Assembly: GCA_951406725.2 (NCBI GenBank)
Contig: OX597822.1
Location: 5,084,001-5,148,000, forward strand
Source: Octopus vulgaris
Lineage: Eukaryota
Length of the DNA: 64,000 nt
Direction of reading: 5' to 3'
A program made the position numbers and the translations under genes. Each line of letters opens with the position of its first letter. The stretch's first letter is position 1. The notes under the pieces are model-generated. The model was not told the origin of the DNA. It was given only the letters and a program-made list of their open reading frames with translations, and made no database searches. Shown here piece after piece: positions 1,331-52,156 of the stretch.

Positions 1331-1686
1331 ATATGTAACATGGTATAATTATAAACAGGGCAAATTTTAACCATTTCTCTGCAGATTGAAAAGATAATGA
1401 AGAACTTTAACTGATTTTCCAACCTTATTGGGTTCTCATCAGAAGAGTCTACATTATTCTGACAGTCTCCAGAGAAACAAGCAGCCAAACTGTTTATATA
1501 TTCAATAAATGCAGCAGTTGCTCTATGAAGGAATCCTTAGTTTGCATGCTGAAAGTGTGTAACACTATAATTACCAGCGGACTGTCAATGGAGATCTTAG
1601 TTCAAACAGTAACGAAGTATGGTATAATAAATATGTAACATATGGTATAATTATAAATGGCAAATTTTAGCCATTTCACTGTAGAT
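1331..1686 (-). mobile_element. 300-bp-period element with 56-bp terminal direct repeat and an internal hammerhead (retrozyme-like or non-autonomous PLE)
   Basis: 1331-1386 matches 1631-1686 (atatgtaaca..tggtataattataaa..ggcaaatttta.ccatttc.ctg.agat), offset exactly 300. Both sides are flanked by (TA)/(TG) repeats. Confidence 0.7.
1401..1450 (-). ncRNA. Type I hammerhead ribozyme motif, decayed
   Basis: Minus strand: AGActCTT-CTGATGA-GAACC caataa GGTTG-GAAA-ATCAGT-TA-AAGtTCT. CUGAUGA and GAAA are intact, helix II is AACC/GGUU, helix I is CUU/AAG plus AGA/UCU. Helix III fits a decayed AACCGGTT palindrome. Confidence 0.65.
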
Positions 1687-14471: not shown

Positions 14472-15715
14472 TAGGTAGTTTTGAAAATAATGGCTGCTCT
14501 AAATGTTGTGTTTTGAAACACAATTTTATCATAGTATTTTAATTATATTTTAGGTGAATTTCAACATACTTCATAACTGTTGTATGCTCTTTAATAATTT
14601 TCTACTTATTTCAGACAGAAAACATTCTTGAAGCATAGGCGCCCTTAATTGCTTACTTTTCTTGCATGAGTTCAAGCTTGGGCACAATGCCTCCCAAACC
14701 ACTGCCAACATCAACAGAGCATGAGGAGAGGGATCCACAAGTGATCGCACAGTACAAAGGTGGTTTCAGAAATTCTGTTGTGGTGATGAGAGCCTTGAAG
14801 ATGAAGAAGGCAAAGGATGGTCATGTAGTCTTGACAATGAACAATTGAAAGTAATTGTTGAACAAAATTCACATCAAAGTATCAGAGAAATGTCTCAGGC
14901 ACTTGGTGTTGGTATTGCAATGTTCTCACACAATCTGCAGAAGATTGGTAAGGCGAAAAAGCTCGATAAATGGGTACCGCATGAACTCAATGAAAATCAT
15001 AATGTTCAGCATTTTGAAGTTTGCTCAATGCTCTTTCTGCAAAACACCAATGATCCTTTTCTTGACAGAATAGTCACTTGTGACAAAAAGTGGATCCTTT
15101 ATGATAACCATAAATGATCGGGTAATGGCTTGATTGTGATGGGTCCCCCAAACATTTCCCAAAGCCAAAGTTGCATCAGCAAAAGATTATGGTGACTGTC
15201 TAGTTGTCTGCAATTGGTGTTGTTTATTACAGCTTTCTAGAAGCCAATCAGAGCATTACAGCAGAGGTTTACTGCAAGCAACTTGCTGAAATGCATACTC
15301 ACTTGCAAAAATGAGACCTGCATTGGTGAATCAGCATGACCCAATTCAGCTCCACAATAATGCAAAGCTACATGCTGCAAGAATGACACTGCAAAAACTC
15401 ACAAACTTGGGATATGCGACTTTACCACATCTTCCATATTCTCCTGATCTTTCACCCACTGACTACCATTTTTTAAAGTGTTTAAACACATTTTTAAGTG
15501 ATAAAACTTTCAGGTCCAAACCAGGGGTGGAATCAGCTTTCAAACATTTCTTAGTATCAAAGCCAATACCTTTTTATCAACGAGGCATAAATAAACTCGT
15601 TGATTGATGGCAGAGATGCATAGATGTTCTTAACTCATCAAAACATTTCTGGTGTTGATTTTTCCAGAATAAAATTATATTTCTGAAATCAGCCATTATT
15701 TTCGGAACAACCTAA
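14471..15715 (+). mobile_element. Full-length inactive mariner transposon (Hsmar1/cecropia-like), ~1.25 kb
   Basis: Left TIR ttaggtagttttgaaaataatggctg after TA at 14469-70. Right TIR cagccattattttcggaacaacctaa ends at 15715. Transposase remnant lies inside. Confidence 0.93.
14630..15630 (+). pseudogene. Mariner D,D34D transposase pseudogene with stops and frameshifts
   Basis: HEFKLGHNA...RWFQKF..GDESLEDE, KWVPHEL, IVTCDKKWILYDN, LHNNAKLH (second D lost), PHLPYSPDLSPTDYH. Confidence 0.93.
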
Positions 15716-36769: not shown

Positions 36770-37239
36770 AACCTATGTGGCCTCTTGGTCCACAGTTTCT
36801 TCCCTAACCCCTCCTTCCAACCTGGATTATTCACCTGCTCCCACCCGTGCAGCCTACTTGCCCCTACCTCTCCAACACCACCATCCTCACAGGCACCCAT
36901 CATTGTCCCTATCATATCACTGACTCCTTTACCTGCATTTCTAGCAACATTATTTACTGCATCACCTGTTCTTTCTGTCCTTCTCTGTACATTGGTCAAA
37001 TGGGACACCACTTGACTGACCAGTTCACGGAGTACCTCCAAGACATTAGACTCAGCAATGACACCCCGATCTCACACCATTTCTGCTCTACCAGTCATTC
37101 ATTACAACACCTGTCTGTATTTGGATTATCTTTGCATAGGAGCCATCCGGACACTCGTCTTCACCATGAACAGGAATTAATTTTCTTTCTTCACTCCTTT
37201 GCACTACATGGGCTCAACTCCCCTCCCCTCTTCATCTGA
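36770..37239 (+). pseudogene. PLE linker zinc-finger plus GIY-YIG endonuclease remnant
   Basis: NLCGLLVHS...PGLFTC, frameshift, then TCPYL...FTCISSNIIYCITCSFCPSLYIGQMGHHLTDQFTEY...PISHHF...EQELIF...HGLN. The catalytic Arg region is mutated. Confidence 0.9.
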
Positions 37240-50173: not shown

Positions 50174-51319
50174 TATATATATATATATATGGAGGGTGGG
50201 GGAGAAATTGGTAATGTGAAAGAGAGTACAAATGCTGACACTCTTGAGATTAGCTGATGTTTTCAATGGGAAATAAAGATGGAGAGAGAGTTGTACCTCT
50301 TGCGGTGCTTTTATAGCCTCTCTAGGTTATATATTTTGATTAATATACTTATTTACCGGCTTCAGTTATTGAACTGAGGCCATGCTGGAGCACCATGTTC
50401 AGAGATTTTAGCCTATGATAGCCACTTCAATCCTTATTTTATCAATGTGATTTGTATAGCAGATGACTTCCACAAAATTATTAGTATTGTTGATGGAGTG
50501 AATGAGTAGTTATCAAGAATCCAGATTGGATTGTTCATTTATTTTATCAAGACTTCTCTCACTACAGAATTTCCTAAAAGAAGCAAACATTAAATTTCTC
50601 TTAGAAATAATTTCTTTCAGCTAGACAATAGCATCCTCAATACAAGGCTGTGCCGCTATCTTAATCAACTCTAATGTCTTACAAAGAATTATTTCATAGA
50701 TTCATATGAGAAATAAGTTCAGAATAGAGAGACATGAAAAAAAAATGATGATGCAAAGAATTTCAACTATTCCTCTATCGACTGGTTATCAGTTAAATAA
50801 TTAACAATATCCAGAGAAACAATTTCTCAGCAGAAGACAGTTTTCTTAACTCATTCATATTCTTTTTCTAGTTTATTTATATTTTTGTGTGTGTGTGTGT
50901 GTGTGTTTAAAATGTATGACTGAATATCACAGTCAATTTATCTAATATCACTGGAAGCACTTGTTTTAGTCACTCTCAAATGACAACAGGCTAATGTTAA
51001 AATCATCGAAATTCATAATCCATGATAATTGAAAAAAATATGGTCTAAAATCAAACAATGTCTCCTTTATACACACACACATATACTTATGTGTGTGTAT
51101 GTATATATGACTGAAACCGGTACTGAAATGTTCTTTATAAAATTATTTTAGCATTTTCTATCTTGACTTGTTTTTTCATATATATCAACTCGTGTGTTCC
51201 TTTTCACCCTTATACATATACATATATATATATACACACACATATATACATATATATATACACATTTATACATACATTTATATGTACATATATATATACA
51301 TATATACACATATCCATAT

Positions 51320-51360
<41 letters not shown>

Positions 51361-52156
51361 TACATACATACATACATACATACATACATACATACATACA
51401 TAAACTATACAATCCAAATGAAATTGAGAGAAAACTGAGAGAAAAGGACTTTATTAAAAAATTCAAACCCAAGCTTAATAAACAATGATAAAAAAATAAA
51501 TTTTATTTAAGGTTTAAAAGTCTTATCCCCATATCTAAAAATTAAAAATCTCTAAAAAGTACTGCTGTCATTGTTTCTAAAAATAAACACTGAAAAATGG
51601 TATGGCATCATTTCTAAAAGTAGCAAAGCAACTACTACTGCTGTCCACAAAGGACAAAATTAAACCAATCAACCACAGTTGAAACCAATGAACACAACTG
51701 TCACTACAACAATATGAACCTGAAGGTTGCATAAATGTAAGAAAGTATACTAGGTCAATAAGAATGGACATTTGATATTTCATTTGTTCAATAAGAATAG
51801 ACAATTAATACTTCATTTCGTTTCTTTTTACCATATTATTTTACATCTTATATCAATAAGACAATAAATAAAACGTGAAAAACAGAGTTGGAATTCCTTT
51901 GAATAGAATATTCTTCTATACACAATCATACAAACCCCTTTGTATATATATATATGTGATGATGATACATATATACACATATATATATGTATTTATACAT
52001 ATATATATATATACACACACATACTTATATACACACACACACACACATATATATATATATGCATATACACATGCACATATATATATATACACACACATAT
52101 ATATACACATACTTATATATACATATGTAAATATATATATATAAATACACATACAC

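Follow-up and report, generated by a model that had tools for sequence, protein, structure and literature searches.

A dispersed ~305-nt non-coding element with a predicted hammerhead in Octopus vulgaris, likely inserted by PLE enzymes acting in trans

A stretch of 64,000 nucleotides of Octopus vulgaris DNA (contig OX597822.1, positions 5,084,001 to 5,148,000; hereafter the window) carries near its start a short sequence that is repeated after 300 nt and contains a hammerhead-like motif on the minus strand. What kind of element is this, and how did it come to span more than one unit? A reading made from the letters of the window alone (the sequence-only reading) had proposed a retrozyme with an exact 300-bp period and ~1.19 copies. 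The direct repeat is real: positions 1327-1386 align with 1627-1686 at a spacing of 300 nt (local alignment score, 78; best of 500 shuffles, 33), at ~85% identity and with two 2-nt indels that cancel out. The family unit, however, is 305 nt long, the element amounts to ~1.17 units, and the terminal redundancy, put at 56 nt, was measured as ~51 nt (1635-1685) of only 85% identity. As had been noted, the element lies between (TA)n tracts, with (TA)n at 1246-1334 and TA/TG-rich sequence beyond 1686, and it is non-coding, in that no open reading frame of 110 aa or more overlaps it. The hammerhead had been placed at 1401-1450; its minus-strand orientation, intact CTGATGA and GAAA, and bulged helix I stand, whereas its true span is 1458-1394. 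The features of the locus are as follows.

1335-1685, minus strand: entire insertion, ~1.17 units of a putative hammerhead-bearing, non-autonomous PLE-type element (retrozyme-like), with the 3' end at 1335 and the 5' truncation point at ~1685.
1335-1634, minus strand: complete terminal unit, 300 nt in the window copy and 305 nt in the family majority, from comparison with family copies.
1635-1685, minus strand: 5'-truncated upstream unit (unit positions ~253-305), a pseudo-LTR-like terminal redundancy of 51 nt, 85% identical to 1335-1386.
1394-1458, minus strand: predicted type I hammerhead including the distal helix I, from the window sequence read against family copies; no Rfam match.
1442-1436, minus strand: hammerhead core CTGATGA, read in the sequence.
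1435-1420, minus strand: hammerhead helix II, its closing G-C broken in the window copy, from the sequence against family copies.
1419-1416, minus strand: hammerhead GAAA, read in the sequence.
1415-1409, minus strand: short hammerhead helix III, its palindrome lost in the window copy, from the sequence against family copies.
1408/1407, minus strand: predicted hammerhead cut after UUA, from the sequence.
Within 1394-1458, minus strand: bulged helix I, part of the hammerhead, from the sequence.
1373-1478, minus strand: predicted long stem around the hammerhead (~1478-1463 pairing with 1388-1373), from the majority-unit fold and RNAalifold; a structure prediction without covariation.
1629-1644, minus strand: unit junction, where a small hairpin is weakly predicted (-3.7 kcal/mol for 60 nt) around the 3' end that is fixed in the family, a candidate internal RT start site by analogy to PMC11167929.
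1246-1334, no strand: (TA)n/(CA)n tract adjoining the 3' end of the element, the putative insertion target, from the sequence and its enrichment in the family (50/102 versus 8.8% background).
1686-1730, no strand: TA/TG-rich flank at the 5' junction, in which a target-site duplication is not distinguishable.

The genome (2.80 Gb in 227 contigs) was searched with the window element, and the best 40 of 1,686 first-look candidates were scored. Full-length non-self matches among these 40 showed 81-86% identity to the window element. A column-majority sequence built from 30 loci of this search, 305 nt long with a GC content of 37.7%, serves as the yardstick for unit positions (u1-u305; the predicted cut follows u229), and the window copy (1335-1685) is 87.8% identical to it. 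A 23-nt motif from the 3' end has 183 exact matches in the genome, while its reversed control has none. By capture-recapture, in which 12 of 92 sites found through an independent motif carry the 3'-end motif exactly, the family has roughly 1,400 end sites, scattered over most large contigs and not arranged in arrays. These data bear out the suggestion of a multi-copy, ~300-nt, non-coding, low-GC element with a type I hammerhead. Segments differ from the majority unit by 7.7% on average (3.4-19.6%; n = 190, with imperfect deduplication), and no young copies were seen, the best non-self match to a near-majority copy being 92% among the best 40 scored. The family is probably extinct. Core and layout are the same in older relatives at 72-85% identity (8 of 30 loci). 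Those at L402, L405, L419-L421, and L429-L431, 72-83% identical to the unit, retain its core and palindrome; the older relatives would be successive waves of one lineage. Part of the unit is also present in the DNA of several organisms.

We found no published description of the family in the literature on cephalopod retrozymes; repeat libraries (Repbase, Dfam, and the library of PMC13282606) may carry it under another label. The words retrozyme, hammerhead, and ribozyme do not occur in the available portion of the PMC13282606 main text. For the giant squid, 235 Rfam hammerhead-1 loci are listed in PMC6962438, without description in the available portion of that paper, and the survey of bioRxiv 10.64898/2026.07.22.740005 sampled no mollusc, according to its available text.

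In the majority unit, all core positions of the hammerhead, the G10.1-C11.1 pair, and helices I to III are present, as judged by eye. Helix II is GAACC/GGTTC with a 6-nt loop, helix I contains an internal loop, and helix III consists of 2 bp inside the palindrome AATCGATT, which takes the place of AACCGGTT or AACCGGUU as first read. The core together with the palindrome has 306 matches in the genome versus 1 for the control. By its sequence, the family hammerhead appears to be the canonical metazoan type I form, and because its helix III is short and palindromic, it would likely cut best as a dimer; in the available part of PMC4209133, the canonical metazoan type I hammerhead folds best as a dimer. 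As a predicted circle, the majority unit folds at -80.7 kcal/mol versus -63.0 ± 5.2 kcal/mol for 100 shuffles (z = -3.4). An Rfam search, as had been suggested for the consensus, gave no match to Hammerhead_1 or any other hammerhead family for the window copy or two better-preserved copies, even at E ≤ 10, so that the hammerhead call rests on the by-eye reading of conserved features. RNAalifold on family copies gave no convincing covariation in the hammerhead and stem pairs (2 of 16 pairs, one sequence each), as expected for copies that decay neutrally from near-identical sources. A sister hammerhead module has the same core and helix II and its own distal helix I, which lends the call some support. 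Decay is advanced: the core is retained in 93 of 207 segments spanning the hammerhead, and the core with the proximal helices in 26 of them. In the window copy, the lowest-energy fold differs from the hammerhead (fold z = -0.96), a G replaces C11.1 so that the G10.1-C11.1 pair is lost, and the palindrome is gone. Because of these two losses, the window copy is probably inactive as a ribozyme and as an element, as the sequence-only reading had supposed.

Several further observations concern the same region. Within the window hammerhead (1394-1458, minus strand), two double-sided changes in helix I, C-G to U-A and G-C to A-U, preserve pairing, possibly by chance; the C-G to U-A double change is rare in the family (2 of ~160). 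In the helix I loop, u187 (window 1450) is a non-CpG A/G site, ~55:45, in a UAG context. A-to-I editing was considered for this site and set aside, because the strands show no overall bias (A>G amounts to 2.6% once u187 is left out, T>C to 3.0%) and the G is linked to a subfamily; a source variant is more likely, with editing confined to this single site as the lesser possibility. On the 5' side of the hammerhead, the majority unit has what we take to be an octamer-like motif (u90-97; window ~1545, minus strand) and a TATA-like motif (u137-144; window ~1495, minus strand), which could possibly form an internal promoter.

The ends of the insertions were then compared copy by copy. All 30 loci of the window-element search, a sample that favors window-like copies, stop at one common point or slightly short of it, without continuing into another unit. 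Two motif-anchored samples, 88 loci with the 3'-end motif (183 matches, 100 of them listed) and 90 loci with a u258 motif (112 matches, 100 of them listed), yielded a census of 171 distinct 5' junctions, in which one duplicated locus is counted twice and one copy is shortened by an insertion. The 3' end fell within -6 to +18 of u305 in 153 of the 171, the slack being TA flank that resembles u1-13. Anchoring at u22-43 makes no assumption about the end; in the sample taken that way, 23 of 30 copies end at u301-u18, a 23-nt window in which ~7.5% would be expected. The remaining seven rows end at u277 (twice, the same locus), 281, 286, and 147-150 (three). The last three, L134, L136, and L139, end directly after the TATA-like stretch, either through later breakage or at a second end site. 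Tails, extending 18-37 nt into the next unit, are present in 6 of 171 copies, the shortest being hard to separate from TA flank.

At the other end the picture is one of scatter. The 5' ends in the census lie 24-503 nt from the 3' end; the longest directly joined copy measures 554 nt, and one locus reaches 2.4 units with a later insertion. Sixty of the 171 copies exceed one unit (~26% after length-bias weighting), and 24 cross the cut site twice (~8% after the same weighting). No tandem arrays were found among the loci examined, and one locus has two full units (best 40 candidates per search). Purine-pyrimidine alternation characterizes the 3' flank of 50 of 102 scorable copies versus 8.8% of random flank positions, as well as the 5' flank of 46 of 171 copies, and clusters of 5' ends near u242-248, u130-138, and u54-77 sit at T-rich or TA-rich stretches. 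An inverted pair at L061, the one pair looked at, is a larger inverted duplication with shared flank. The features of PLEs given in the available text of PMC8557442 are 5' truncation, partial tandems (pLTRs), tails, and microsatellite targets. By analogy, the ends of this family carry PLE hallmarks and would reflect PLE-like target-primed insertion. Mobilization by PLE enzymes, which had been proposed from the window, is thus probable, given that the copies have a fixed 3' and a truncated 5' end, partial tandems and tails, and microsatellite at their flanks.

A candidate source of such enzymes is present in the genome. The GIY-YIG domain (PF01541) has at least 148 matches (150 scored of 6,136 candidates), many of them in 781-aa open frames that encode an RT followed by a C-terminal GIY-YIG, with a CX4CxxC linker. 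This linker is attributed to Neptune and Nematis in the available text of PMC8557442, and by its linker the intact PLE would be of the Neptune/Nematis type; a protein search returned RT/GIY-YIG relatives and no informative clade. The young PLE at L209-L216 (e.g., L212:344-5560), with 98-99% identity between copies, partial tandems, (TA)n targets, and an optional ~28-nt tail, was probably active recently. Its copies end in (TA)n, and a hammerhead variant that has a U3-A8 core and a palindromic helix III lies ~65 nt before that end (20 of 30 loci); this core variant has been described in PLEs, according to the available part of PMC4209133. The intact PLE shows that machinery of the right kind exists in the genome, and its layout equals that of the unit, whose cut lies 76 nt from the end. 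Since the unit shows no homology to the ends of GIY-YIG loci (30 of 148 sampled) and the PLE is far younger, the intact PLE is not established as the partner.

Other PLE- and hammerhead-related sequences were encountered in the course of these searches. The sister hammerhead module was tried as the pLTR of an autonomous partner and rejected: it sits in a ~20-copy composite non-coding repeat, and no PLE ORF was found within 8.5 kb upstream. This repeat (L227:6969-8592 and L231-L253) has a fixed 5' end, the module within it has its own 3' end, and tRNA-like sequence often follows (L187:1834-1904; Rfam tRNA, 41.5 bits). Downstream of a PLE, a repeat contains yet another hammerhead-like motif, one with a long helix II (L210, minus strand, near 769; also L160). 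The window itself contains broken PLE endonuclease-like fragments at 36808-37239 and 51141-51488, the latter ending like the L217 ORF, and at 14725-15117 a fragment presumably resembling a mariner transposase.

Other origins of the copies were weighed. Random priming on a circle would leave circularly permuted insertions, as the sequence-only reading had expected, and the single window copy, being longer than one unit, fits that picture. With the 3' end fixed in 153 of 171 census copies and in 23 of 30 mid-anchored copies (23-nt window, ~7.5% expected), and with 5' truncation that varies, the copies are not permuted, and we regard this origin as scarcely credible. Length beyond one unit, which had been taken as a sign of a circle, is an ordinary PLE partial tandem that by itself shows no circle, according to the available texts of PMC8557442 and PMC11167929. 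The copies might instead be mere 5'-truncated ends (pseudo-LTRs) of an autonomous PLE and not an element of their own. Their layout is that of the pLTR of the genome's intact PLE, and PLE insertions are mostly truncated (bioRxiv 10.64898/2026.07.22.740005, available text); yet throughout the census u1 is preceded by u305 of another unit or by unique flank, never by a common ORF, and PLE ORF remnants occur in 7 of 312 unit-match loci, at least 190 nt off, in mixed orientation, and none joined, all of which makes this origin improbable. Equally improbable, in our judgment, is that LINE enzymes or DNA-level duplication spread a SINE or satellite whose hammerhead-like motif arose by chance. This origin would suit the missing Rfam and covariation support and the fold z of the window copy, whereas the majority unit has a full core, the closing G-C, a short palindromic helix III, and a bulged helix I, and the same core recurs in the sister module, combined with another distal helix I. 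Moreover, no tRNA match was found over 1331-1686, the family 3' ends adjoin microsatellite and have no A-rich or poly(A) tail, and the copies lie scattered across most of the large contigs and form no arrays.

Thus, we hold with good confidence that the window carries a decayed copy of a dispersed ~305-nt non-coding element with a predicted type I hammerhead, likely inserted by the RT and endonuclease of a PLE in trans. The observed part of this reading comprises the size and age of the family, the 3' end that is fixed and the 5' ends that are truncated, the partial tandems, the tails, the microsatellite at the flanks, and the chimeras described below. Judged by its sequence, the element appears to belong to the animal retrozyme/non-autonomous PLE class, of whose retrozyme features it has most, with the hammerhead as a predicted one; PLE enzymes probably mobilized it.

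Which RNA served as the template for these insertions? Of the copies that reach the first cut (u230), 0 of 153 stop within 3 nt of it versus 5.2 expected from the mean rate, and of those that reach the second cut 2 of 25 do so versus 0.8 expected. These counts show no 5'-end pile-up at the hammerhead cut, such as a template of cut linear monomers would leave, which fits a circle or an uncut multimer. One circle as template would give units that are identical at insertion. Positions u172 and u178 mark a linked subfamily (P = 2e-7 among 1,358 tests). There are 79 directly joined unit pairs, of which 23 cover both positions in each unit. The major haplotype stands in both units of 12 pairs and the minor in both units of 2; 4 pairs are mixed at both sites, and 5 show other single changes. 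Under one template, 4 of 23 mixed at both sites has P = 3e-4, with double mutation set at up to 0.7% per unit. At u187, 5 of 24 joined copies are discordant and 19 concordant, a level above mutation alone (P = 0.02) and below random pairing (P = 0.004). Units of one copy share 21 rare variants versus 11.0 ± 3.1 for random pairs (2 of 1,000 draws). The numbers behind the chimeras are small, and the sampling by design partly favored long copies and the minor haplotype; gene conversion could also yield chimeric tandems. For the most part, then, a tandem derives from a single source variant, and a minority combine two. Since 4 of 23 tandems join two haplotypes, copying round one monomeric circle is not the whole story. 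A few copies end at the cut (L291 and L296 at u230; L184 at u232), which would need cut linear RNA; L105 and L376 also break there and then resume after an insertion, so the cut region may be a target for later insertions.

The main competitor keeps the same element and enzyme and has as template a hammerhead-made monomeric circle, with one fixed priming site, more than one round of copying, and template switches that yield chimeras (the model of PMC4209133 and PMC7229834, in their available parts). We consider it possible, though on balance doubtful. The missing 5' run-off at the cut, the 24 of 171 copies that cross the cut twice, the strongly self-paired predicted circular fold, and the mostly concordant units within a copy all speak for it. 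It sits less well with the 4 of 23 tandems that differ at two linked sites, the 5 of 24 that differ at u187, and L291, L296, and L184, which end at the cut, where a circle has no end. Nor was abundant one-strand RNA seen in two raw runs (~6% of each), in which 178 of 12.9 million and 196 of 12.0 million reads matched the unit at 82% likeness. The matching reads represent both strands, 74% of them continue into unlike sequence, and their starts and ends do not pile up at the cut; this sparse RNA resembles passive read-through transcription across old copies. Both runs could derive from a related species, and small or non-polyadenylated RNA could have been lost from them, so that they are compatible with a circle. 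Within the PLE reading, we would give a linear multi-unit RNA, uncut or partly cut, roughly an even chance and rank it slightly above a monomeric circle with frequent template switching, which keeps a substantial, lesser share; cut linear monomers with forced jumps seem improbable, and any other template still more so.

Comparison with known systems was made against the available texts of the papers concerned. Like the animal non-LTR retrozymes of Cervera & de la Pena 2020 (PMC7229834) and Li, Clavereau & Pollet 2026 (bioRxiv 10.64898/2026.07.22.740005), the family has a ~300-nt non-coding unit (class, 150-450 nt), a GC content below 45%, an apparently canonical type I hammerhead with a short palindromic helix III, a predicted self-paired circle, and PLEs in the same genome. 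Unlike them, it is dispersed as partial tandems of 0.1-1.8 units (one locus, 2.4) and not in arrays, is old and apparently inactive with no abundant RNA seen, and has insertion ends that can be read copy by copy. With MRC1 (Chlamys), a non-autonomous PLE (Craig et al. 2021, PMC8557442), it shares non-coding content, 5' truncation, head-to-tail partial tandems (pLTRs), tails, and microsatellite targets; in contrast to MRC1, it bears a predicted canonical hammerhead, and 3' homology to an autonomous family was not found (30 of 148 loci). Fixed ends with a tail and AT-rich targets are also known from the Poseidon PLE of the green anole (Frangieh et al. 2024, PMC11167929). There, RT starts in vitro at two internal stem-loop sites that define end and tail, and insertion proceeds without hammerhead cutting, which is dispensable. 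Poseidon is autonomous and was tested in vitro, whereas the mechanism of the present family is deduced from genomic copies alone. As in the intact PLE of the same genome (L209-L216), the 3' end lies in (TA)n, with a partial tandem and an optional tail. The hammerhead of that PLE, with its palindromic helix III, lies ~65 nt from the end, and the cut of the family 76 nt; unlike the family unit, the PLE has a U3-A8 core, shares no sequence with it, and is much younger (98-99% between copies).

In the mechanism that we propose, a source locus with more than one unit would be transcribed, and the GIY-YIG endonuclease of a PLE would nick a TA/CA microsatellite. RT would begin internally at one site, the unit-junction hairpin, 76 nt 3' of the hammerhead cut, and a second start slightly further downstream would produce the tails. 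The RT would then pass the hammerhead site and the junction and halt at a variable point, often in TA-rich microhomology.

For insertions longer than one unit, two models compete, according to the available texts: rolling-circle copying of a hammerhead-made circle (PMC4209133, PMC7229834) and internal priming on uncut multi-copy RNA (PMC11167929). The mobilization of retrozymes is listed as unresolved in the available text of bioRxiv 10.64898/2026.07.22.740005. Known retrozymes lie mostly in arrays, and their insertion ends are hard to read. In this family, each insertion has both ends preserved, and some have two units that carry subfamily markers; simple counts can therefore test the models. 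The insertion record rejects permutation and bears on the question of circle versus multimer; as the class is already known and the family apparently extinct, the surprise is limited. It is a tentative proposal, somewhat short of an even chance, that the ~1,400 insertions preserve, like fossils, the work of PLE RT in trans: priming would be fixed at the junction hairpin, the hammerhead would be read through, and different source variants would be joined in a sizeable share. If this is true, animal retrozymes would move via multi-unit or template-switched RNAs, and a circle would not be a required intermediate.
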